64,000 nt of DNA from an uncultured Bacteroides sp. (GCA_949288715.1 CASELH010000032.1:9817-73816); one strand, 5' to 3'; positions 1,111 through 62,805 are shown, counted from the first letter of the stretch. Numbers and translations are program-made. Notes: generated by a model not told the origin, from the sequence alone.

Positions 1111-2478
1111 ATGAAAAAAGTCGTTTTATCTGCTATTGCGCTGATTGTATCAGCCTTTGCATTTGCACAGACGCGGACCGCTCCCGTCAAGGTAGAGGGC
1201 GGAATGATTGAAGGTGTAGTCATCGATGGTGTCAACACCTACCTCGGAATTCCCTTTGCCGCTCCACCTGTGGGCGAACTGCGTTGGAAAAAGCCCCAGC
1301 CTGTACAACCTTGGCAAGGCATCCGCCTTTGCGACCGTTTTGCACCGGCACCGATGCAGAATATGAATGCCCGTCGGCCCAAGGCGTGGAAGAATGTGGC
1401 CGAAATGAATCCTACAACAAGCGAGGACTGCTTGTATCTCAATGTCTTTGCTCCGGCAAAGAAATCCGATAAGCCCTATCCGGTGATGGTATGGATATAT
1501 GGCGGCGGTTTCCACCAAGGTGGAACGGACGGCCCGGTATACCGGGGCAACAAATACGTCAAAGAAGGTGTCATTATGGTTTCCATAGCCTATCGGTTGG
1601 GTGTGTTTGGCTTTCTTGCCCATCCGGAACTCAGCAAAGAGAGCGGTCACGGTTCGGGCAACTATGCGTTGTATGACCAGATTGCCGGGTTGAAATGGGT
1701 TAAGGAAAATATTGCAGCCTTCGGAGGCGACCCCAATAACGTCACGGTATTCGGCCAAAGTGCGGGCTCGCGCAGCATCCAAGGGTTGCTGTGCGGCAAA
1801 GGCACCGAGGGCCTCTTCCAGCGTGCCGTTCCCCAAAGCGGCTGTGCCATCCGTGATGATGCCAAATGCTTGCCTCTTAATGAAAATGAGGCACTCGGAA
1901 AAGCTTTCTTCGAAAGCATAGGAATCACCAGCCTCGAAGCTATGCGGGCCATTGATGCGGTGACTCTTCAGCAACTCTATCAGAATTCTACCTTCACTCC
2001 TAAGTTCCGTCCCGCCATTGACGGTTCGCTTATCGTAGAAGACTTTAATGACGCTACACTTGGCGGGCGTTATCTTGACATTGACTATATGATAGGCTAC
2101 ACCAAGGACGATGTGCCTAAAGCCAATTTTCCTAAGAGTGTAGGTGCCTGGGCCGATAACCAGGTCATCAATCTCAACCGCCGTCCTATCTATGTCTACA
2201 GTTTCGACCATCCGCAGCCGGAAGACCCCAATAATCCTACCAAAGACCAGTTCGGGGCAAAAGGAGCCATCCATTCTGCCGAACTTCCCTACATGTTTGG
2301 GCAAGTAGAGCTGAGTAAAAAGCCTATGAAAAAAGAAGATTACGAACTGGCCGAACGCATGGTGAAGTATTGGACCAATTTTGCCAAATATGGCAATCCC
2401 AACGGATTGACCGCCGGCGACTGGAAGCCTTACACCAAGGCAGACCAATATGTACACCATCTTGACGTGAAAAAGTAA
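1111..2478 (+). CDS. Type B carboxylesterase, secreted
   Basis: Signal peptide; GIPFAAPPVGELRW, SEDCLYLNV, WIYGGGF, GQSAG nucleophile elbow, HSAELPYMFG. Confidence 0.9.
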   Translation: MKKVVLSAIALIVSAFAFAQTRTAPVKVEGGMIEGVVIDGVNTYLGIPFAAPPVGELRWKKPQPVQPWQGIRLCDRFAPAPMQNMNARRPKAWKNVAEMNPTTSEDCLYLNVFAPAKKSDKPYPVMVWIYGGGFHQGGTDGPVYRGNKYVKEGVIMVSIAYRLGVFGFLAHPELSKESGHGSGNYALYDQIAGLKWVKENIAAFGGDPNNVTVFGQSAGSRSIQGLLCGKGTEGLFQRAVPQSGCAIRDDAKCLPLNENEALGKAFFESIGITSLEAMRAIDAVTLQQLYQNSTFTPKFRPAIDGSLIVEDFNDATLGGRYLDIDYMIGYTKDDVPKANFPKSVGAWADNQVINLNRRPIYVYSFDHPQPEDPNNPTKDQFGAKGAIHSAELPYMFGQVELSKKPMKKEDYELAERMVKYWTNFAKYGNPNGLTAGDWKPYTKADQYVHHLDVKK

Positions 2479-2509
2479 TTATAAACCCATCAAACAGACC
2501 TGATCAAAA

Positions 2510-4726
2510 ATGAAAAACCTTTCGAAATCAATTCTTGCCATTGCTTTGGTATTCCCATTGCAGGGCTTTGCCCAGACAAATGTTGCCCCTAAAGACACTA
2601 CTGTAGTCAAGGAAAATACAGAGGAAATAAAAGACGCCATCGCCTTGCTCAATGCCTCAAGTGCCAGCGAGCCTCGCGCCGTACCTATCGGACTGCCTGC
2701 TGCCTACACAGTTGTACGCCAGGATGGTCTGCCGGTTACTTATTTCTGGGACCCCAATGCCACCAACCTACACTGGCGTCAGGACGGCTCGCTGCAGAGC
2801 ACCAAGACGTTGCCTATGTCCATGACGGGCATTTACGAGGGTGAAATTGGCGTAGGTGTTGATTCATACACCAAGTTAGGCTCCCGGCAATTCAAGGGCA
2901 ACGCCAAATATGCCACCAACACCTTGGGCAAACATTCTTTCAATGTCGGCCTTTCCGGGGGCCTGGGCAAAAGGACGACTTTCTCGCTCAATGCCTACAA
3001 TAATATGGATCCCGGCAATGTGATGCTTCAGTTCACGCGTTTTGCCGACCGCGTTCAGTTTTACACCGGTACGCTTACCCATCAGTATGATGACAAGGGC
3101 TCTGCTTTCTCCGTGTTCTACAAGTACACCGACATGCACGACCTGTCCAGTACGGTAAAGCAGGCGCCATTCTATTGGGTGGGCGATGGTTCCATTGAGG
3201 AGTTCGATGACTTCGTCATTGGTAAGGATAATTATGGTAACAACGACGGTGTCATTACTTACCAGGACATCCGCACCGGTGAAATGAAGACAGCCAACTA
3301 CAACGACTTGGCTCACAGCCATTCTCATGAAGTCAAATTCATGCTCGACCATAAGTTTGACCCGAAGACTACATTGTTTCTGCGTGCCAAAGCATCGTTC
3401 ACCGATCGTAATGCACTGGAAGATAATACCCAGAACGTCCTTGCCGAGCAAACTCGTGACTATTACGACGGCAGCGGCACTTATACCGGTCGCATACAAC
3501 GCCGTTTGGCTCAAGTCGGTGCCGGCAACATCGAAGATTACATGTTAGTGGCCCGCCTCAACAAGAAGACAGACCGGCACGATTGGAATGTTGCTGTTTT
3601 CGACTACCTGGAACATGTGGACTACGGGACCTCTTCGGTTCAATACGACCACGAGGTGAAAGCCAATCCGATGCGTTTGCGTTTCAACGGTAACCAGTTC
3701 TTCAACTTCAATGCCAGCGGACAGTTTGCCAAAGGTTGGGAAAACAAGGCCGGTGCGTTCCTGTTCGACACTTGGAAGGTACATCCTTTCGTGAAGCTCT
3801 CTTATGGAGCCCGTCTGGAATACTTCAATCTGAACGTCGACTACTCGCAGGATGCCCGCTTTGCCGGCTTCTACCTCGGTGGTCCCACGAAGGATGGCAA
3901 CGGCACCGTTGGCCTCACCAGCGACAGGCTTCATGGTTTCAACTATTCGGTATCGTTCATTCCGACCATCAATTTCACCAAGGATTTCGGATTCGACGGA
4001 GAAATCAACTACATCACCATGTATCGCCATATTCAAGGCTTCTACGGTGCCAATGCTCCTTTGTCGAAGACTCGTCCACACACCTTGGCTCGTGCCGGAT
4101 TCTTTTACAACCATAAACTCTTCAACGTGGTGACGTCTTTCACGTATTCTTATCGTAAAGGCGACTCGGGTCGTATCACCGTGCCGAGCGAAAATCCCAA
4201 TGAAAGCTCTGTCATGGTGCCCTATCATCAGGCCATACGCACCATGGGCTGGAAGACCGACCTTATGCTCACCCCTTTCAAAGGATTCTCGCTCAATGTA
4301 ATCTTTACCCTTCAAAACCCCAAACTGGCCATGTACAAGTTCTCGGCCTTCGGTAAAGACTACGATTTCGCCGGCATGCAGATGCCCAATCTTTCGAAAA
4401 TCTTGCTGGACATCAATCCCCGCTACTCTTACAAAGGATTCAATATCTGGATGAGTGCCCGCTATTCCAGTAAGCGGTATGCTAACGTAGGCAATTCCAT
4501 TGTCTTTGACGGTCGTTGGGAAACCTTTGCAGGGGCCAGTTACAAAATCAACAAACATGCCACCTTCACCGCCAATGTCGTGAACTTCCTGAACACTACC
4601 GGCCCCGCCGGAAACGTTCCGGGGTCGGCTCTCATTACCGACGGTTCACAGTTTGCAGGTTCGCTGATTGCCGGTTCCTACATCCGTCCTTTCCAAATGG
4701 AGTTTGGGCTTAACATTAATTTCTAA
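2510..4726 (+). CDS. TonB-dependent-receptor-like outer membrane beta-barrel (no SusD partner)
   Basis: Signal peptide, 738 aa, amphipathic aromatic-rich strands, C-terminal FGLNINF. Confidence 0.75.
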   Translation: MKNLSKSILAIALVFPLQGFAQTNVAPKDTTVVKENTEEIKDAIALLNASSASEPRAVPIGLPAAYTVVRQDGLPVTYFWDPNATNLHWRQDGSLQSTKTLPMSMTGIYEGEIGVGVDSYTKLGSRQFKGNAKYATNTLGKHSFNVGLSGGLGKRTTFSLNAYNNMDPGNVMLQFTRFADRVQFYTGTLTHQYDDKGSAFSVFYKYTDMHDLSSTVKQAPFYWVGDGSIEEFDDFVIGKDNYGNNDGVITYQDIRTGEMKTANYNDLAHSHSHEVKFMLDHKFDPKTTLFLRAKASFTDRNALEDNTQNVLAEQTRDYYDGSGTYTGRIQRRLAQVGAGNIEDYMLVARLNKKTDRHDWNVAVFDYLEHVDYGTSSVQYDHEVKANPMRLRFNGNQFFNFNASGQFAKGWENKAGAFLFDTWKVHPFVKLSYGARLEYFNLNVDYSQDARFAGFYLGGPTKDGNGTVGLTSDRLHGFNYSVSFIPTINFTKDFGFDGEINYITMYRHIQGFYGANAPLSKTRPHTLARAGFFYNHKLFNVVTSFTYSYRKGDSGRITVPSENPNESSVMVPYHQAIRTMGWKTDLMLTPFKGFSLNVIFTLQNPKLAMYKFSAFGKDYDFAGMQMPNLSKILLDINPRYSYKGFNIWMSARYSSKRYANVGNSIVFDGRWETFAGASYKINKHATFTANVVNFLNTTGPAGNVPGSALITDGSQFAGSLIAGSYIRPFQMEFGLNINF

Positions 4727-41064: not shown

Positions 41065-42903
41065 ATGCTGAAACAATTTTTCTCACTTCTGGGGCGCTAC
41101 ATCAAGCCCTACCGCAAGTATGTGACGTGGGCCGTTATCCTCAACTTCCTGTCGCAGTGGCTCAACGTGTTCTCGTTTGCCGCCATTATCCCCATCCTCA
41201 ACATCCTGTTCAAGATAGACAGCAAGGTCTATGAGTACCAGCCCATGGACTGGGGCCACCTGGACAAGGACGTGCTGGTGAACAATGCTTACTGGTGGAT
41301 TGGCAACTTCATCTCCGACCACGGCCCCTTCCTCACCCTGGTGCTGATGGGTGCCATACTGATAGGCATGACGTTGCTCAAGACGGCGGGCTACTTTGCC
41401 TCGTCGGCCGTGATGGTGCCCCTGCGCACGGGCATCGTGCGCGACATCCGCATCGAGGTATATAATAAGGTATTGCGCTTGCCGCTCAGCTTCTTCTCGG
41501 AAGAGCGCAAGGGCGACATCATCGCCCGTATGAGTGCCGACGTCACGGCCGTGGAGAACTCCCTCACCAGCTCCATAGACATGCTGCTGCGCAACCCCAT
41601 CGCGCTGGTCATCTACTTCTCCACGCTGTTCATGATAAGTTGGGAAATGACGCTCTTCGTCATCGTCGTCCTGCCCCTGGCAGGCTGGGTGATGGGGGTG
41701 GTGAGCCGCAAGCTGAAGCGCCAGTCGTCCACCGCCCAGGCACAGTGGGGCGACATCATGTCTCAGCTCGATGAAACGCTGGGCGGCCTGCGCATCATCA
41801 AGGCCTTCATTGCCGAGAGCAAGATGGCGGCACGCTTTGCCAAGACCAACAACGACTACCGCGACGCCATGAACGCCATGGTCATCCGCCAAAGCTCGGC
41901 CCACCCCATGAGCGAGTTTCTGGGCACGTGCGTCATCGTCATCGTGCTGTGGTTTGGCGGCTCCCTCATTCTGGGCACCGACTATGCGCCCATGGATGCC
42001 GCCACGTTCATCTTCTACATGGTCATTCTCTACAGCATAATCAATCCGCTCAAGGAGTTTGCCAAAGCCTTCTACAACGTGCCCCTCGGCCTGGCCAGCA
42101 TGGACCGCATCGACATGATTCTCAAAGCCGAGAACCCCATCAAGGAGCCCGCCAATCCCCAGCCCCTCACAGCCTTCGAGCACCAGCTGGAGTTCCGCGA
42201 CGTCAGCTTTAGCTACGTGGAAGGGCGCCCTGTGCTGAAGCACATCAACCTCGTCGTGCCCAAGGGCAAGACCATCGCCCTGGTAGGGCAGTCCGGCTCG
42301 GGCAAGTCCACTCTGGTCGACCTCGTGCCCCGCTACCACGACGTACAGGAGGGCGCCGTGCTCATCGACGGCAAGAACATCAAGGACGTATCCATCCGCA
42401 GCCTGCGCTCCCTCATAGGCAACGTCAACCAGGAAGCCATCCTCTTCAACGATACCTTCTACAACAACATCACCTTCGGGGTGGAAAACGCCACCATGGA
42501 GCAAGTCATCGAGGCCGCCAAGATAGCCAACGCCCACGACTTCATCATGGAGTCCGAGAAAGGCTACGACACCATGATAGGCGACCGCGGCGGACGCCTA
42601 TCCGGCGGGCAGCGCCAGCGCGTCAGCATAGCCCGCGCCATCCTGAAGAACCCGCCCATCCTCATCCTCGACGAAGCCACCTCAGCCCTCGACACCGAGA
42701 GCGAGCGCCTGGTGCAGGAAGCCCTGGAGCGCCTCATGAAGTCGCGCACCACCATCGCCATTGCCCACCGCCTGAGCACCATCAAGAACGCCGACGAAAT
42801 CTGCGTGCTCTACGAAGGCGAAATTGTGGAGCGCGGCACCCACGAGCAGCTCATCGCCCTCAACGGCTACTACAAGAAGCTGAACGACATGCAGAGCCTT
42901 TGA
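41065..42903 (+). CDS. ABC transporter ATP-binding/permease (MsbA-like)
   Basis: Six-TM domain, GQSGSGKST, LSGGQRQR, ILDEATSALD, AHRLST. Confidence 0.93.
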   Translation: MLKQFFSLLGRYIKPYRKYVTWAVILNFLSQWLNVFSFAAIIPILNILFKIDSKVYEYQPMDWGHLDKDVLVNNAYWWIGNFISDHGPFLTLVLMGAILIGMTLLKTAGYFASSAVMVPLRTGIVRDIRIEVYNKVLRLPLSFFSEERKGDIIARMSADVTAVENSLTSSIDMLLRNPIALVIYFSTLFMISWEMTLFVIVVLPLAGWVMGVVSRKLKRQSSTAQAQWGDIMSQLDETLGGLRIIKAFIAESKMAARFAKTNNDYRDAMNAMVIRQSSAHPMSEFLGTCVIVIVLWFGGSLILGTDYAPMDAATFIFYMVILYSIINPLKEFAKAFYNVPLGLASMDRIDMILKAENPIKEPANPQPLTAFEHQLEFRDVSFSYVEGRPVLKHINLVVPKGKTIALVGQSGSGKSTLVDLVPRYHDVQEGAVLIDGKNIKDVSIRSLRSLIGNVNQEAILFNDTFYNNITFGVENATMEQVIEAAKIANAHDFIMESEKGYDTMIGDRGGRLSGGQRQRVSIARAILKNPPILILDEATSALDTESERLVQEALERLMKSRTTIAIAHRLSTIKNADEICVLYEGEIVERGTHEQLIALNGYYKKLNDMQSL

Positions 42904-42904
42904 G

Positions 42905-42989
42905 AATGAAGAACTAAAAATGAAGAATGAAGAATTGCCATGCGGGACATCCCTGAGAATTCTTCATTCTTCATTTTTAGTTCTTCATT
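42905..42989. repeat. Heptamer palindrome (AATGAAG-type), perfect 32-bp arms, 21-bp spacer
   Basis: aatgaagaactaaaaatgaagaatgaagaatt / aattcttcattcttcatttttagttcttcatt; spacer gccatgcgggacatccctgag. Confidence 0.9.
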
Positions 42990-56961: not shown

Positions 56962-59154
56962 ATGATAAAGAAACTGACCCGCGGCCTGCTCGCCACCATC
57001 GTGGCCACCGCCGCCCTATACCCGACAAACGTCATGGCACAAGACCAGCAAACCCTGCAAATGCCTACCCTGGAAGACCTTATCCCCGGAGGCGAAACCT
57101 ACCGCTTCACCGAGAGCCTCTACGGCCTGCAGTGGTGGGGCGACCGGTGCATCAAGCCGGAGATAGACTCCCTCTTTGCCGTCAACCCCAAGAACGGGCG
57201 GGAGACGCTGCTCACCACCCGCGCCAAGGTGAACGAAGTGCTGCGTTCGCTCATCACCCCTACCGACAGCCAGGCGCAGGGCAGGGACGAAGTGATGCAC
57301 TTCTACAACACCGAATTCCCTTGGCCGGACAAACCCTACATGCTCATCAAAGGCGCAAAGCGGTACATCGTCTACGACTTCGAGAAGAACGAGTTTGTGA
57401 TTGCCTATCCGCAGGCCGCAAAGGCCGGAGGCACCAACGTAGACTTCACGCCGGAGGGCGGCCACATAGCCTACACCGTGGGCAACAACCTCTACGTGGA
57501 CAACCGCCAAGTGACGGACGAGCCCGAAGGCATCGTCTGCGGACAATCGGTGCACCGCAACGAGTTTGGCATCACCAAGGGTACGTTCTGGAGTCCACGG
57601 GGCACGCTGCTGGCCTTCTACCGCATGGATGAGAGCATGGTGACGGAGTATCCGCTGGTGGACATCACCCAGCGCATCGGCACGGTGGAGAACATCCGCT
57701 ACCCCATGGCGGGCATGACGAGCCACAAGGTGCAGGTGGGCATCTACAACCCCACGACGGGCAATACGCTTTACCTGGAGACCGGCGACCCCACCGACCG
57801 CTACTTCACCAACATCGCCTGGGCGCCGGACGAGCGGAGCCTCTACCTCATCGAGCTGAACCGCGACCAGAACCACTCCAAGCTCTGCCAATACGACGCC
57901 ACGTCGGGCAAGCTGATGGGCGTGCTCTACGAGGAGACGCACCCCAAGTACGTGGAGCCGCAACAGCCCATCGTGTTCCTGCCGTGGGACGACACGCAGT
58001 TCATCTACCAGAGCCAACGCGACGGCTACAACCACCTTTACCTGATGTCGGTAGACAACCCATCGCCCCGCCAACTCACCCAAGGCTCCTGGCTGGTGCA
58101 AAGCATCCTGGGCTTCAACGCCAAGAAGAAGGAAGTCATCATCGCCGCCACCAAGGAGTCGTCCCTGCAGAGCAATATATATAAGGTAAGGATAAAGGAC
58201 GGCCGCCTGACGCCGCTGGACAACGGCCAGGGCGTGCACTCTGCCCAGCTCTCCGCCTCGGGCACGTATGTGATAGACAACTGGTCGAGCCCCCAAGTGC
58301 CGCGCAACATCGGCATCGTCTCCACGGCCAACGGCAAGGAGACGGCCCGCCTGCTCACCGCCGCCGACCCCTTCCGCGGCCTGGTGATGCCCACCGTGGA
58401 GACCGGCACGCTGAAGGCCGCCGACGGCAAGACCGACCTGTACTGGCGCATGCTGAAGCCCGCGGACTTCGACCCGGCGAAGAAATACCCCGTCATCGTC
58501 TACGTCTACGGCGGGCCGCACGCGCAAATGATTAATGCCAACTGGATGTACGCCGCCCGCGGCTGGGACCTCTACATGGCCAACCGGGGCTACATCCTCT
58601 TCACCCTCGACAACCGGGGCAGCGCCAACCGCGGCCTGGAGTTTGAGAACTGCACCTTCCGCCACCTGGGCATCGAGGAGGGCAAAGACCAGGTGAAGGG
58701 CATCGAATACCTCAAGAGCCTGCCCTACGTGGACGCCTCGCGCATCGGCGTGCACGGCTGGAGCTTTGGCGGGCACATGACCACGGCACTGATGCTGCGC
58801 TACCCCGACGTGTTTAAGGTGGGCGTGGCCGGAGGGCCCGTCATCGACTGGCAGTTCTACGAAGTGATGTACGGCGAGCGCTACATGGACACGCCGCAGC
58901 AGAACCCCGAGGGCTACCGGGAGTGCAACCTGCGCAACCTGGCCCCGAGGCTGAAGGGACACCTGCTCCTCATCCACGACGACCACGACCGCACCTGCGT
59001 GCCGCAGCACACGCTGTCCTTCCTCAAAGCCTGCGTGGACGCCCGCACCTATCCCGACCTCTTCATCTACCCCACGCACGACCACAACGTGCTGGGCCGC
59101 GACCGCGTGCATCTGCACGAGAAGATTACGCGCTACTTCGAGGACTACTTGTAG
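56962..59154 (+). CDS. Dipeptidyl peptidase IV (S9B)
   Basis: HRNEFGI..GTFWSP, YPMAG, GVHGWSFGG, DDHDRTCV, HDH. Confidence 0.93.
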   Translation: MIKKLTRGLLATIVATAALYPTNVMAQDQQTLQMPTLEDLIPGGETYRFTESLYGLQWWGDRCIKPEIDSLFAVNPKNGRETLLTTRAKVNEVLRSLITPTDSQAQGRDEVMHFYNTEFPWPDKPYMLIKGAKRYIVYDFEKNEFVIAYPQAAKAGGTNVDFTPEGGHIAYTVGNNLYVDNRQVTDEPEGIVCGQSVHRNEFGITKGTFWSPRGTLLAFYRMDESMVTEYPLVDITQRIGTVENIRYPMAGMTSHKVQVGIYNPTTGNTLYLETGDPTDRYFTNIAWAPDERSLYLIELNRDQNHSKLCQYDATSGKLMGVLYEETHPKYVEPQQPIVFLPWDDTQFIYQSQRDGYNHLYLMSVDNPSPRQLTQGSWLVQSILGFNAKKKEVIIAATKESSLQSNIYKVRIKDGRLTPLDNGQGVHSAQLSASGTYVIDNWSSPQVPRNIGIVSTANGKETARLLTAADPFRGLVMPTVETGTLKAADGKTDLYWRMLKPADFDPAKKYPVIVYVYGGPHAQMINANWMYAARGWDLYMANRGYILFTLDNRGSANRGLEFENCTFRHLGIEEGKDQVKGIEYLKSLPYVDASRIGVHGWSFGGHMTTALMLRYPDVFKVGVAGGPVIDWQFYEVMYGERYMDTPQQNPEGYRECNLRNLAPRLKGHLLLIHDDHDRTCVPQHTLSFLKACVDARTYPDLFIYPTHDHNVLGRDRVHLHEKITRYFEDYL

Positions 59155-59189
59155 GAATGAAGAATGAAGAACGAAGAATGAAGAATTAA

Positions 59190-59240
59190 AAAAGAAGCCG
59201 CCTGCCTCGTGTGCATCGCAAGCACGCAGGGCAGGCGGAA
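59190..59240 (-). terminator. Terminator for the DUF4160-DUF2442 operon
   Basis: ccgcctgcc...ggcaggcgg stem, T-rich tail on the minus strand. Confidence 0.65.
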
Positions 59241-59264
59241 TCATATATGCCGGGATGCGGAAGC

Positions 59265-59498
59265 TTAGGCCGGCACCCCGTTTTCGTAAAGGTATTCCGG
59301 AGCAATATCCGCACCGTTGGCCCAAAAGATAGTGTCTTGCAGGCCGAATTGGACGAACTGGCGCTTGTCCCGCAACTCCTCGAAAGCCGGGTATTGCAAC
59401 AGGGACGACAAGTCTACTTTCTTCCTCACTCCGTCGCTGAAGGTGCAAAGCAGGGTATAGTCGCCCAAATATTCCACATCGGTAATAGTCAGTAACAT
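59265..59498 (-). CDS. DUF2442 protein (putative antitoxin)
   Basis: ITDVEYLGDYTLLCTFSDG...TIFWANGADIAPEYLY. Confidence 0.85.
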   Translation of the reverse strand: MLLTITDVEYLGDYTLLCTFSDGVRKKVDLSSLLQYPAFEELRDKRQFVQFGLQDTIFWANGADIAPEYLYENGVPA

Positions 59499-59516
59499 AA
59501 GTGCTTCTCCTCTTTT

Positions 59517-59768
59517 TTATCGTTTTACTTTCTCTATCTTTTCTCCGCGCTGTGCCTTGCCCCAGATTTCCATCAGTTCGGCCTCATGCTCGTCTATGAA
59601 CTGATTGATGATTTGAATGACTTTCGACTTGGCCCGGCCCTCTACGATGCGGTCTTTCAGCGTGATGGTGAAGTCGCCGCTTCCGCTGCGCACATGAATG
59701 TGCGGCGGGTTGTGGTCGAAAGCATAGATATATATCAGCAGGCCTTGGATGACAAATATTGATCCCAT
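59517..59768 (-). CDS. DUF4160 protein (putative toxin)
   Basis: IYIYAFDHNPPHIHV...LMEIW. Confidence 0.85.
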   Translation of the reverse strand: MGSIFVIQGLLIYIYAFDHNPPHIHVRSGSGDFTITLKDRIVEGRAKSKVIQIINQFIDEHEAELMEIWGKAQRGEKIEKVKR

Positions 59769-59929
59769 GTTCTGTTTCTAAAGTTCTTGTACCGTGTGCA
59801 AAGTTAGCACTTTTCCCCGGAAACGGGCGGGGAAGGGTGCTTTTTTATACAACGAAGGGGTGAAGCCCCTGTCCGGTCGCTTCACCCCCCATTCTTCATT
59901 CTTCGTTCTTCATTCTTCATTAAGAAGCT

Positions 59930-60445
59930 TTACCCCAGCTGGTGGTCCCCGTCGTCCTCGCCGGTGCCGGTGCCGGGCGTAGTGGGCGTGCCGCCCTGGC
60001 CGGTGGCCTGGTAGAAGTCGGCGCGGGTGGCGTAGCTGATGCCGTCCTTGCTGACGCCGCCGTCTTCAAACTCGATGTTCTGGCGGATGCGGTCGCGCAG
60101 CTCCTTGGAGGGCATGAACACGGGGCGGATGTCGTAAATCATCTCTTTCGCGTTGAAGTCCTGCACCGTGTCGGCCCCCTTGCTCTTGAAGGTGATGCGG
60201 AAGTAGCCCAGCCCGGGCAGTGTGACGGTGTGGCCCTGCAGCAGCTGCTGGGGGATGAAGTCGGCCAGCAGGTCGAGCGCGGCCTCCAGCTCGATGGGTG
60301 CCAGCGTGGTGTTCTTGGTGGCGGCCCGGGTCATGGCCTTGCCGCTGAGCGGGGTCTCGCTCTGCGTGGTGCCATACCATTTCTTGGGGGCCGACTTGTC
60401 CCTCGGGTCAGTGCTTTTCTCTACCATTTTACATTTAAATCCCAT
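59930..60445 (-). CDS. HU-family (Bacteroidetes histone-like) DNA-binding protein
   Basis: LLQGHTVTLPGLGYFRITFKSKG..IRPVFMPSKEL; Gly/Thr/acidic tail ending DHQLG. Confidence 0.85.
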   Translation of the reverse strand: MGFKCKMVEKSTDPRDKSAPKKWYGTTQSETPLSGKAMTRAATKNTTLAPIELEAALDLLADFIPQQLLQGHTVTLPGLGYFRITFKSKGADTVQDFNAKEMIYDIRPVFMPSKELRDRIRQNIEFEDGGVSKDGISYATRADFYQATGQGGTPTTPGTGTGEDDGDHQLG

Positions 60446-60540
60446 AATGTACCTCCTTTTTTAAATTGTGAATAAAAAGATGTTGTTCTCATTGTTGTGT
60501 TATATTTCTGTATTTCAGATGATTATCTTTCTGCTTGGCT

Positions 60541-60668
60541 GAGGCCGGAACTCGACCTTGGCGGAGGGCTTTCCTCGACCATGGTGGAGACGGCATCGCG
60601 ACCATGGTGGAGACGGCGTCACGACCATGGTCGAGGAGAGGTTGCGACCATGGTCGAGTTTTTGCCTC
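60541..60668. repeat. Five-unit 23-bp array with palindromic CGACCATGGTCG core and imperfect terminal inverted repeats
   Basis: cgacc at 60553, 60576, 60599, 60622, 60645; ends gaggccggaactcgacc / ggtcgagtttttgcctc. Confidence 0.85.
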
Positions 60669-60670
60669 CC

Positions 60671-62805
60671 TTAGGGGCGAGGTCGTTCCGTGCCTTCGCC
60701 CTGGTCGTTGTAGTCCACAATGCCGTCCTTGGTGCTGGTCCCTGTGTCCCAGTCGTAGGTGTACTTGTAGACGGTGCTGCTCTTGATGTCGCCCTGGATG
60801 AGGCTGCTTCCTTGATTCAACTGCCCCGTTACTCCCAGGCCGATGTAGTCGGGATTACGCGGTGATGTACAATATCCCCGATAGGCATGGATTTCTGAGT
60901 TGTGGATGACAATCTCAGGCAGCGTGCTGAATGAGCCGATGGCAGGAGCGGCAGAAGATGGCAATCCATAACCACGGGCGCGCACGACGGCATCGGTGAT
61001 GGTGATGGTGCCGCAACTGCCCTCCTCCATGCTACCGATGCCCGGCGCGCTGGAGTAGAGATAACCGCCAGTGGCTTCTACGGTGATGCCTGTGATGGTG
61101 ATGTCGCCGCAAGGGGTCGAGGCAAAACTGCCGATGCCGGCGCCGTTCTGGGCCGTTATGTTCAGCACATTGTCCGGACCATCGCCTGTGAGGGTAATGC
61201 TGCTGCCGGATGCCACATAAATGCCAGCAAATTCACTTGCAGCGTCCTTCCTATTAGCAGATACAGAGTTCTCGCCTACTATTCGAAGGGTAGGAGTGGC
61301 CCCGTCGGTGATGCTGATGGCATTGGCATCGGTCATCGTGATGTTGGCTTCCTCCAGCACCACGGTGATGTCTTCTTTGCCGCTGATGGTGATGCCTTGG
61401 GTGTAGGTGCCCTGCATGATGTATGTGCCTGCCTCGGTGAGGGTCTGCCCGCCTTTTACTACGGGGATTTCCAGCACCCGCGATGCCGTCTGCTTGCTGC
61501 CGTCGGTGCGGATGAGGGACACGTCGAGCAGGGCTTTGCCCGCCGTGGCGGGGGCGGTGACGGTGATGGTGATGCCGTCGTCGTCCGTCCGCTGCAGGGC
61601 TGCGCTCCACTCGTCGGGGGTGGTGCGGGTCAGCACGGCGTCATTGCCCAGGGGGGTGACGGTGGCCGTGATGTTGGCATAGTCTGCATCGGCACTCAGC
61701 TGGAGGTAGAGGGTGGTCTGGCCGCCCGGGGTGACGGGCACCATTTCGTTGCCGGAGGGGGTGCCGGCCGTGTGTTCCGCTTCGGTCAGTATCCGGAGGG
61801 GTTGGTAGGCGGGGACTTTTATAGTGGGGTTGTTGGTGTCGTCTTCGTCCTTGTCGGCCAGGGTGAAGATGTAGTGCGTGCCGTCGGCGGACAGCTCGGG
61901 GGCGGAGGCGAAGAATGAGTCGCCGGGCTGGCCGTCAGCCCCTGCAGGTCCTGTCGGTCCTGTTGGTCCTGTCGGTCCTTGGGGACCTGTCGGCCCACGG
62001 TCGCCATCCTCGCCATCTTCGCCGCTGATGCGGTACCACGTCTCGCCGCTGTCCACGCTGAGGTACCAGGCATCGGGCTGCTTTGTGCCGTTATCGGTGA
62101 TGATGGTGCCCTCCGTAATGCTGCTGCCCAGGCTGATTTGGGGGGTGGGGGCGTCTTGCCCATCTACGCCGTCCTGCCCGTCTTCGCCATCGGCTCCGGG
62201 CTGTCCGTCCTGTCCGTCTTGGCCGGGCTTGCCATCGGTGCCGTCTTGCCCGTCGAGGCCGTTGGCACGGACGGGGTTGCCTTGCGGGTCGAGCAGCAGC
62301 TGGCCGTCCAGCGTCCAGTACCAGTTGCCGTCGGCCTCTTGGGTCAGGCCTATCTGCGGGGTGTAGCCGTCGGCGCCGGCATCGCCCTTCTCGCCTTGTT
62401 CTCCTTTGTCGCCCTGTTCTCCCTTGTCGCCTTGTTCACCTTTGTCCCCCTTGTCGCCTTTCTCTCCGTGGTAGATGGTGATGGGGTCGCTGTGCAGGAA
62501 GCTGATGGTGTAGCCCACCTCTCGGCCACCCTCCATGAGCGGGGTGATGGCGGTGATGCAGTCGGTGGTGTTGAGCAGTTGCTGTATGGCGGCGATGTTG
62601 TGGTTGGTTTCCTCCTGCCACTGTTCGAGGGCGGCGAGGCGCTCCTCATGGTTGTTCACCGCGTCCCACAGGGCGGTGTCGTCGTAGTCGTCCTGGCAAG
62701 AGGTGAGTGCCGTGCCTGCCAAGAGGAAGCAGGTTGCCAGGAGTGAATAGTTAAACTTGGTTAAACGGGGGGGGTAAATCGGTATACCCCTGTTGGTAGT
62801 TTCAT
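60671..62805 (-). CDS. Collagen-like surface lipoprotein (DUF4988/PL29-N-terminal type); ATG at 62805 currently out of frame
   Basis: LTSC lipobox, DDTALWDAVNNHEERLAALE, three Gly-X-Y blocks, GNWYWTLDG, Gly/Thr-rich C-terminal domain. Confidence 0.8.
62767..62774 (-). repeat. C8 homopolymer in the signal-peptide coding region (putative phase-variation tract)
   Basis: G8 on the plus strand; C9 or C6 would put the ATG in frame. Confidence 0.7.

Follow-up and report, generated by a model that had tools for sequence, protein, structure and literature searches.

Inverted heptamer arms around a putative toxin-antitoxin operon in a gut Bacteroides genome: probably independent gene-boundary repeats brought together by chance

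In a 64,000-nucleotide stretch of DNA from an uncultured Bacteroides sp. (GCA_949288715.1 CASELH010000032.1:9817-73816; hereafter the window), two perfect 31-base inverted arms made of heptamer repeats enclose a small operon of a DUF4160 and a DUF2442 gene, a putative toxin-antitoxin (TA) pair, between the gene for dipeptidyl peptidase IV (DPP IV) and a gene for an HU-HIG family DNA-binding protein. Comparison with the remainder of the genome and with related species led us to the view that the locus is probably a chance juxtaposition of three parts, namely the 3' arm of the DPP IV gene, a long-resident TA operon and the 3' arm of the HU gene. The two arms would be separate members of a lineage-wide, high-copy period-7 family comprising (AATGAAG)n and its sister dialects, whose arrays abut gene boundaries, on the sense strand after stops and antisense before starts. 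The left arm would then be a long-standing 3' tag of DPP IV, the right arm would travel with HU-HIG paralogs in a unit that runs from the stop codon through an 8-nt spacer and the arm to a terminator hairpin, and the DUF4160/DUF2442 operon would be an independent module that entered the variable spacer between DPP IV and purD before the split from the sister species. We infer that a later rearrangement placed an HU island, with its 3' arm facing inwards, beside the TA promoter. The arms would be inverted because the strand rule of the family applies to convergent genes, and identical because both represent the family master sequence.

The structural description given in the first-pass annotation, which was made from the sequence of the window alone, was borne out. 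The arms at 59156-59186 (AATGAAGAATGAAGAACGAAGAATGAAGAAT, plus strand) and 59891-59921 are exact reverse complements, and the 704 bp between them (59187-59890) hold the promoter, the two genes and the terminator that had been named, as supported by Pfam matches, a −7 box and a hairpin with a U-run. A scan for the heptamer pattern gave nine matches in the window and none in 100 shuffles. As claimed, the left arm begins 1 nt beyond the DPP IV stop codon (59152-59154); the right arm lies 8 nt from the HU-HIG stop codon (59930-59932), on its inner side. Promoters of Bacteroides carry a −7 box with the consensus TAnnTTTG. The DUF4160 and DUF2442 genes are adjacent and co-oriented, with an 18-nt gap and a −7 box of their own, which is the gene layout of type II TA systems, and we regard them on this basis as a putative TA pair. 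The hairpin at 59194-59242 precedes a minus-strand U-run (UUCUUUUUU) and coincides with a minus-strand match in the terminator scan, which fits an intrinsic terminator of the TA operon; according to the fold, it would also close the 3' untranslated region (3'UTR) of DPP IV. The hairpin at 59857-59888 and the adjoining UUCGUUGUAU likely form the HU terminator in the model. In the predicted folds both arms are unpaired and each is followed by its own terminator hairpin, the left one lying in the DPP IV 3'UTR; pairing between the arms across 704 bp, as RNA or as DNA, is not expected, and neither is a functional palindrome. An Rfam search returned no family at the gathering threshold in the whole window, and only chance-level matches at 59050-60000.

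The genome to which the window belongs (G000) is a Bacteroidaceae metagenome-assembled genome of 3.28 Mb in 103 contigs with 54% GC and 94% completeness that occurs in chicken and bird gut metagenomes. The exact 31-mer is present in 26 copies. Approximately 133 AATGAAG-type arms, mostly 28 nt long, fall into 84 clusters, of which 27 are simple hairpins, 11 have three arms and 46 are solo arms, and period-7 arrays of all dialects number 283 (AATGAAG 95, TTAGTGA 43, AATTGAG 41 and others). Among 40 convergent arm pairs, 28 have loops of 26-74 bp and 10 have loops of 145-231 bp, the latter being parts of a repeat of approximately 330 bp that resembles a miniature inverted-repeat transposable element (MITE); convergent AATGAAG pairs with more than 300 bp between the arms occur only twice, at the DPP IV/HU locus and on contig C40. 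The identical 31-mer is also found in at least four other species of the genus, the DPP IV DNA of which is 82-90% identical, and a 16-mer of the arm gave 77-221 matches per genome in five relatives versus 0-1 for the reversed control. The canonical 31-mer is the master form of the (AATGAAG)n family. As the variant unit AACGAAG belongs to this master sequence, the identity of the two arms says nothing about a recent formation of the pair; the earlier proposal that it signals recent formation or active maintenance does not hold in view of the 26 exact copies and their counterparts in other species. That the 31-mer is unchanged across species whose housekeeping genes are 10-25% apart in DNA points to constraint or concerted evolution.

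Ten or more copies of the MITE-like repeat were counted, at C6:105106-105433, C17:15019-15373, C21:55295-55655, C42:5590-5949 and at least six other sites; several copies lie at contig ends. It carries 15-bp terminal inverted repeats (AAATGGGAATTTAGC / GCTAAATTATCATTT) and is ordered as terminal repeat, GC mini-hairpin and heptamer arm on both sides of a palindromic, GGAGG-rich core. The dialect of an arm can apparently switch at a fixed site, to judge from the sequences compared. One MITE core (C6:114741) is flanked by AATGAAG arms in G000 and by TTAGTGA arms in the sister species (G023), and the 3' arrays at orthologous and paralogous HU genes are of the GTATTAA and TTAGGTA dialects in G023 (L090 2035-2085 and L089 1455-1500) and of the AATGAAG dialect in G000 (C24:22164-22191).

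The arrays follow gene boundaries and strand. A stop codon lies within 40 nt of 136 of the 283 arrays (median 2.5 nt) and a start codon within 40 nt of 96 (median 11 nt). For AATGAAG arms, the stop of an open reading frame (ORF) of at least 100 codons was found at the outer end, corresponding to the sense orientation with AAUGAAG in the mRNA, in 47 cases versus 5 at the inner end. Frequently the first array unit contains the stop codon of the gene, and each dialect seen includes a stop triplet, so that stops in all three frames are reached within three units. It follows from this strand rule that 3' arms on two convergent genes are automatically inverted repeats of each other. The start of an element 1 nt after a stop codon, which had been read as part of the delivery of genes to gene ends, is a property of the family and not of a delivery mechanism. 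As to their function, we would guess that the arms act as 3'UTR or gene-boundary elements that provide stops in three frames and, where two arms pair, form a stable hairpin. A distance of 8-12 nt separates many solo arms from CAAAG(A/G)TA, the reverse complement of the Bacteroides −7 box TAnnTTTG, so that these arms cover the −15 to −45 region of an outward-facing promoter (C6:94100, C30:28617, C33:28080, C34:9315, C58:11608, C60:2896, C60:15055, C60:25238 and C82:6450).

The history of the left half can be read from the closest other species, likewise an uncultured Bacteroides sp. (locus L001, contig CALUJC010000009.1 = G023:C9), whose DPP IV protein is 88% identical to that of the window. 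There, the DPP IV stop codon is followed at the same position by a 24-nt arm (AATGAAGAATGAAGAACGAAGAAT) and then by the terminator hairpin known from the window, DUF2442, DUF4160 with a frameshift, the promoter region, unrelated sequence and finally purD; the spacer between DPP IV and purD contains neither an HU gene nor an intact right arm. The DUF2442 proteins share 95% identity. A single unbroken alignment of 2,442 bp at 91.9% identity runs through the 3' part of DPP IV, the arm and the TA operon and stops at approximately 59860. The left arm and the TA operon have thus diverged like the adjoining housekeeping gene and already occupied this position when the two species separated; on this alignment a recent formation of the left arm and TA operon, as had been suggested, is ruled out. 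The TA copy of the sister species (L001 6513-6820) is decaying, with DUF4160 split over three frames, the −7 box reading TAACTTCG and DUF2442 intact.

In the ancestral order of Bacteroidaceae, DPP IV is directly followed by purD; the purD gene of the window's genome is found on a different contig, behind a cvpA-like gene. The spacer holds different contents in other members of the family: L003 (6250-6930) has a different small two-gene module on the minus strand and no arms, L048 (5634-6563) has an HU gene and no arms, and L002 has only a two-unit arm. Across Bacteroidaceae, the content of this spacer is thus variable. A relic in G023 (TGCAAAGGTACGAAAA) is homologous to the promoter of the L003 module (TGCAAAGATACGAAAA).

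The right half probably has a separate origin. BLAST searches with the right region returned matches of 80-86 bp and 91-96% identity that start exactly at the arm on contigs C24, C19, C51 and C42, and a weaker one on C25. All six HU paralogs concerned (window, C19, C24, C25, C42 and C51) end in CAGCTGGGGTAA (GGGTAA), followed by an 8-nt spacer, A(T/G)CTTCTN, which is conserved in all except C25, where it is absent, and then by an AATGAAG arm. The canonical 31-mer is found at four of the six, and the GC hairpin that succeeds the arm differs from one paralog to the next. The break in homology to the sister species coincides with the inner foot of the HU terminator hairpin (59857-59888), which indicates that the unit that arrived beside the TA operon consisted of the HU gene, its arm and its terminator. 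An alternative that the first-pass annotation had itself named, independent single arms serving as 3' elements of DPP IV and the HU gene, is therefore essentially what was found.

Variation among strains points in the same direction. An identical DUF4160 protein is encoded on ten metagenome contigs of one study, and wherever neighbours are visible, order and orientation are always HU, arm, TA, arm, DPP IV. In strain L126, which is 98.6% identical in the TA region, the HU-side arm has five units, AATGAAG four times, then AACGAAG and then AAT, and the DPP-side arm is canonical and unchanged; the two arms do not co-vary. Strain L123 has the MITE-like repeat's core in place of the HU terminator hairpin.

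The view that these palindromes are gene-capture units had been offered both for this locus and in general. It was not supported for this locus, where the arms behave as independent elements and signs of mobility are lacking, and it found support in the weaker, general sense that hairpin interiors host small selfish genes. Orthologous sites in G000 and G023 were compared by means of concatenated flanks, with 21 hairpin and 14 solo-arm sites being mappable, and an element is retained at almost all of them. The number of units changes, and the arms often persist around loops or inner modules that have been swapped for unrelated ones; a gene-sized insert was seen at one of the 22 hairpin sites compared. 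In one G023 hairpin (L110; G023:C1:50915-51285), otherwise identical to its counterpart in G000 (C19:9868-9962), the loop contains a 183-bp MITE with perfect 21-bp terminal inverted repeats (GAGCCTGTTTAAATTTTGCTC) and TAA on both sides. Directly after a solo arm, G023 carries a ParE/RelE-like pair of 91 and 108 amino acids with the box TATATTTG (L131; G023:C1:106680-107420), which is missing from the window's genome (C54:16676-16703). In the reverse direction, a gene for a 23S intervening sequence (IVS) protein (PF05635; C10:817-1182) lies between AATTGAG arms at C10:787-1219 in the window's genome, and G023 has a different 217-aa ORF and only the right arm at this site. At C40, a RelE-type pair is present in both species and the left arm only in the window's genome. 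PF05635 genes in Bacteroidales relatives (L134-L143) stand between inverted period-7/8 arrays 370-480 nt apart in 7 of 10 cases, with a unit sequence that differs from one locus to the next; the number of PF05635 genes showed no clean pattern with arm abundance across 40 relatives. Small self-contained genes do settle inside or beside heptamer elements, as the IVS-type gene does as a rule; arms and cargo are gained and lost independently of each other.

Several observations weigh against a chance juxtaposition and favor an origin of the locus from a single split hairpin, in which the TA operon entered or replaced the loop of one old heptamer hairpin behind DPP IV and the right side was remodelled later. 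One comes from the empty element that had been reported near 42905 and was confirmed at 42904-42989, with a 33-bp perfect stem that begins 1 nt after the stop of a 612-aa ORF (41065-42903). Its ortholog in G023 (L093 ~2113-3155; G023:C72:35372-36349) has the same arms approximately 960 bp apart. They enclose minus-strand genes for DUF3791, DUF3990 and DUF3791, which have a −7 box of their own (TATTTTTG) where the right arm has its inner foot. This loaded copy lacks the 26-nt loop of the G000 hairpin, and in a third species (G016) the orthologous site consists of just 38 bp without an element. The site shows that cargo can replace exactly the loop of a heptamer hairpin. At the DPP IV stop itself, L006 (6163-8057; 79% DPP IV identity) has a complete heptamer hairpin followed by another gene. 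The sister species moreover carries an arm-like CCTTCATTTTTAAG in right-arm orientation approximately 70 bp past the homology break, to the right of the TA operon, and the 11-mer CTTCATTTTTA occurs only three times outside arms in the window's genome; a decayed right arm in the common ancestor is thus possible. The case for a chance juxtaposition is further limited in that our spacing and orientation statistics for the window's own genome rest on small numbers and crude gene calls: adjacent AATGAAG arms at 300-1500 bp spacing count three in −+, two in −− and two in +− orientation, and across all dialects pairs 250 bp to 6 kb apart are inverted in 22 and direct in 24 cases.

The loop swaps and the MITE described above likewise speak for a split hairpin, and on this reading the loops of long AT-rich hairpins would be especially prone to insertion or to breakage followed by repair. 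Against it, the right arm is contiguous with a 3' unit of HU paralogs that is found at five other loci, the homology with G023 stops at the HU terminator, 30 bp to the inner side of the right arm and not within the arm, the arms vary independently in strains, and a gene-sized insert was found at just one of the hairpin sites compared. We consider a split hairpin, the main rival explanation, unlikely for this locus, if worth keeping in mind. A broader version, to which we give about the same low weight, regards heptamer-arm hairpins as a dispersed cassette platform in Bacteroidaceae, the loops of which would be preferred by IVS-type four-helix-bundle genes, TA pairs and MITE cores. Content might be exchanged by breakage of AT-rich palindromes or by recombination in near-identical arms, and the DPP IV locus might then be an old loaded element whose right half was overwritten by the HU-arm unit, a scenario that we again hold to be rather improbable.

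A non-autonomous mobile cassette, of the kind represented by mobile insertion cassettes (MICs), MITEs or hairpin-forming doublets of repetitive extragenic palindromes (REPs), named REPINs, would treat the arms as terminal repeats by which a transposase or recombinase supplied in trans moves arms and cargo to gene ends. It can draw on the heptamer arms internal to the MITE-like repeat, a true repeat with its own terminal repeats, and on the small selfish modules between or beside arms at several loci. The interior (59187-59890), however, has no second copy in the window's genome, where BLAST returned the self-match only, and no second copy of the cassette was found among 120 genus genomes, where no other DUF4160 exceeds 51% identity, the orthologous pseudogene excepted. 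None of 11 other DUF4160/DUF2442 loci (two in the window's genome, nine elsewhere in the genus) has period-7 inverted arms. Target-site duplications are absent from the arm ends, the outer flanks reading TTGTAGG before the left arm and AAGAAGC after the right arm without a direct repeat. Between arm pairs 1-3 kb apart there is no transposase, the enclosed genes being housekeeping genes. The trans-acting enzyme that had been postulated found no candidate either: the transposase of REP-associated elements (RAYT/Y1, PF01797) gave no match in the 94%-complete genome, in a search whose control was positive in 6 of 14 reference genomes, and was ruled out on account of this absence. Arm sites are, moreover, overwhelmingly conserved in place between species, and arms are present or absent independently of cargo in the sister species.

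Frequency gives no further support, as convergent (loaded) pairs are no commoner than chance in the window's genome, where orientation counts are even. When genes of 160 aa or more are considered, approximately 10% have one end within 60 bp of an array; both ends are so placed in 17 genes, most of which are housekeeping genes (purE-like, argC, LysR-type regulator, SusD-like), and of eight TA-like loci two have arrays within 200 bp on both sides, the DPP IV/HU locus and the RelE-type pair at C40. There is no sign of a joint movement of arms and cargo or of the action of an enzyme in trans, and a mobile cassette is largely refuted for this locus, with very little probability left to it. Another DUF4160/DUF2442 locus in the genus (L082 1135-1868, G133:C5) is enclosed by inverted repeats of a non-heptamer type, 26-27 nt long, 81-85% complementary and 607-682 bp apart.

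Least probable of all, by a narrow step, is an invertible segment, in which the 31-bp repeats would flip the 704 bp and so switch the direction of the TA operon or the read-through from its neighbours. Perfect repeats of 31 bp are long enough for occasional homologous inversion, yet the seven independent metagenome contigs that span both arms, together with the sister species, display one orientation only, with DUF2442 next to DPP IV, and no invertase gene is adjacent. Logan contigs end exactly at the 31-bp arms, and a rare inversion would thus not be visible in them. Joints in the Logan data that skip approximately 700 bp were considered as excision products and rejected, as they contain other loop sequences and hence derive from other members of the family.

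Taken as chance neighbours at this locus, the arrays most likely constitute a further case of a known class of heptameric intergenic repeats and not a new gene-carrying mobile element. GGGAATC arrays of Xanthomonas number approximately 186 per genome, mostly of four units, form 70-75 convergent pairs and lie within 50 bp of a stop in sense orientation or upstream of an ORF in antisense, and related heptameric intergenic arrays, GGGGA(C/T)T, occur in Nostoc (Rehm et al. 2015, PMC4692102). The arrays described here agree with these in the 7-nt unit, approximately four units per array and more than 100 arrays per genome, in the position at gene boundaries with its strand rule (47 versus 5), and in the frequent convergent stem-loop pairs (40 pairs). 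They differ in that the unit AATGAAG is A/T-rich and purine-rich and allows no G-quadruplex, in the stop triplet of every dialect and the recurrent GC mini-hairpin modules in loops, and in the host, a gut Bacteroidaceae. The short tandemly repeated repetitive (STRR) heptanucleotides of cyanobacteria are similar repeats. Literature searches for REP, MITE or heptamer repeats of Bacteroides, including a full-text search for the heptamer string, returned nothing relevant beyond the 2015 study of Rehm and co-workers, and no description of heptamer arrays or of an ORF-in-hairpin layout in Bacteroidaceae was found.

Other systems share single features only. The 23S rRNA IVS, in which an S23p/four-helix-bundle ORF lies in a hairpin (for example the 428-nt IVS of Coxiella burnetii, PMC4990558), resembles the present locus as a small gene between inverted arms able to form a long stem; in contrast, the cargo here is PF13711 and PF10387 and not PF05635, and the site is intergenic, with arms that belong to two flanking genes and no RNase III-type excision implied. 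With REPs, bacterial interspersed mosaic elements (BIMEs) and REPIN-RAYT systems of Proteobacteria, the family has in common abundant extragenic palindromes, a mosaic of modules, conservation across species and possible roles in 3'UTRs, and differs from REPIN-RAYT in lacking Y1 (RAYT), in consisting of tandem 7-mers instead of a unique imperfect palindrome, and in lacking a GTAG-type tag. Passenger genes flanked by MITE-type repeats are familiar from mobile insertion cassettes such as MIC231 of Bacillus cereus and from integron mobilisation units. Like these, the locus has passenger genes without a transposase between inverted repeats, but it lacks a target duplication, multiple copies and a cognate transposase, and its arms have separate histories. 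Integron cassettes lie in arrays beside an IntI integrase, each of them promoterless and with one attC. At this locus no cassette array was seen, although no search was aimed at IntI; the elements are scattered, and a promoter of its own belongs to the cargo.

Hundreds of heptamer arrays in a lineage of gut Bacteroidaceae, governed by the rules of their Xanthomonas and cyanobacterial counterparts, widen an unexplained-repeat problem to a major gut clade. The empty and loaded pair at 42905, together with the IVS genes between arms, offers a testable handle on how TA and IVS-type genes settle in intergenic regions.

Table 1. Features of the DPP IV/HU locus and of the comparison hairpin, in window coordinates.
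Feature	Position	Strand	Evidence
Heptamer-arm hairpin between two convergent genes (comparison)	42904..42989	.	33-bp perfect stem, −50 kcal/mol, z = −12.5
DPP IV / prolyl oligopeptidase S9 gene	56962..59154	+	Pfam DPPIV_N 4.7e-83, Peptidase_S9 1.3e-44
Left arm, 4.4 units of (AATGAAG)n, canonical 31-mer, DPP IV sense-strand 3' tag	59156..59186	+	Sequence, pattern scan
GC-rich hairpin, putative intrinsic terminator of the TA operon	59194..59242	.	Fold −36.8 kcal/mol, z = −3.8
DUF2442 gene, 77 aa; putative TA pair, second gene	59265..59498	-	Pfam PF10387, E = 1e-14
DUF4160 gene, 83 aa; putative TA pair, first gene	59517..59768	-	Pfam PF13711, E = 6.9e-16; also encoded on 11 metagenome contigs
Bacteroides-type −7 box TAACTTTG, putative promoter of the TA operon	59799..59806	-	Read from sequence
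GC hairpin GGGGUGAAGC...GCUUCACCCC, then UUCGUUGUAU on the HU sense strand	59857..59888	-	Predicted fold
Right arm, canonical 31-mer, HU-HIG sense-strand 3' tag	59891..59921	-	Sequence, pattern scan
HU-HIG family DNA-binding protein gene, 171 aa, multi-copy paralog family	59930..60445	-	Pfam PF18291, E = 1.8e-16

Two minor observations concern the surroundings of these features. The hairpin at 59194-59242 is also present in the sister species. The HU-HIG gene and the adjacent collagen-repeat lipoprotein genes (59930-62722) belong to a multi-copy module family that occurs in both species, with at least eight partial matches in G023 (C23, C24, C1, C18, C43), and the window's genome contains approximately 16 HU-like genes.

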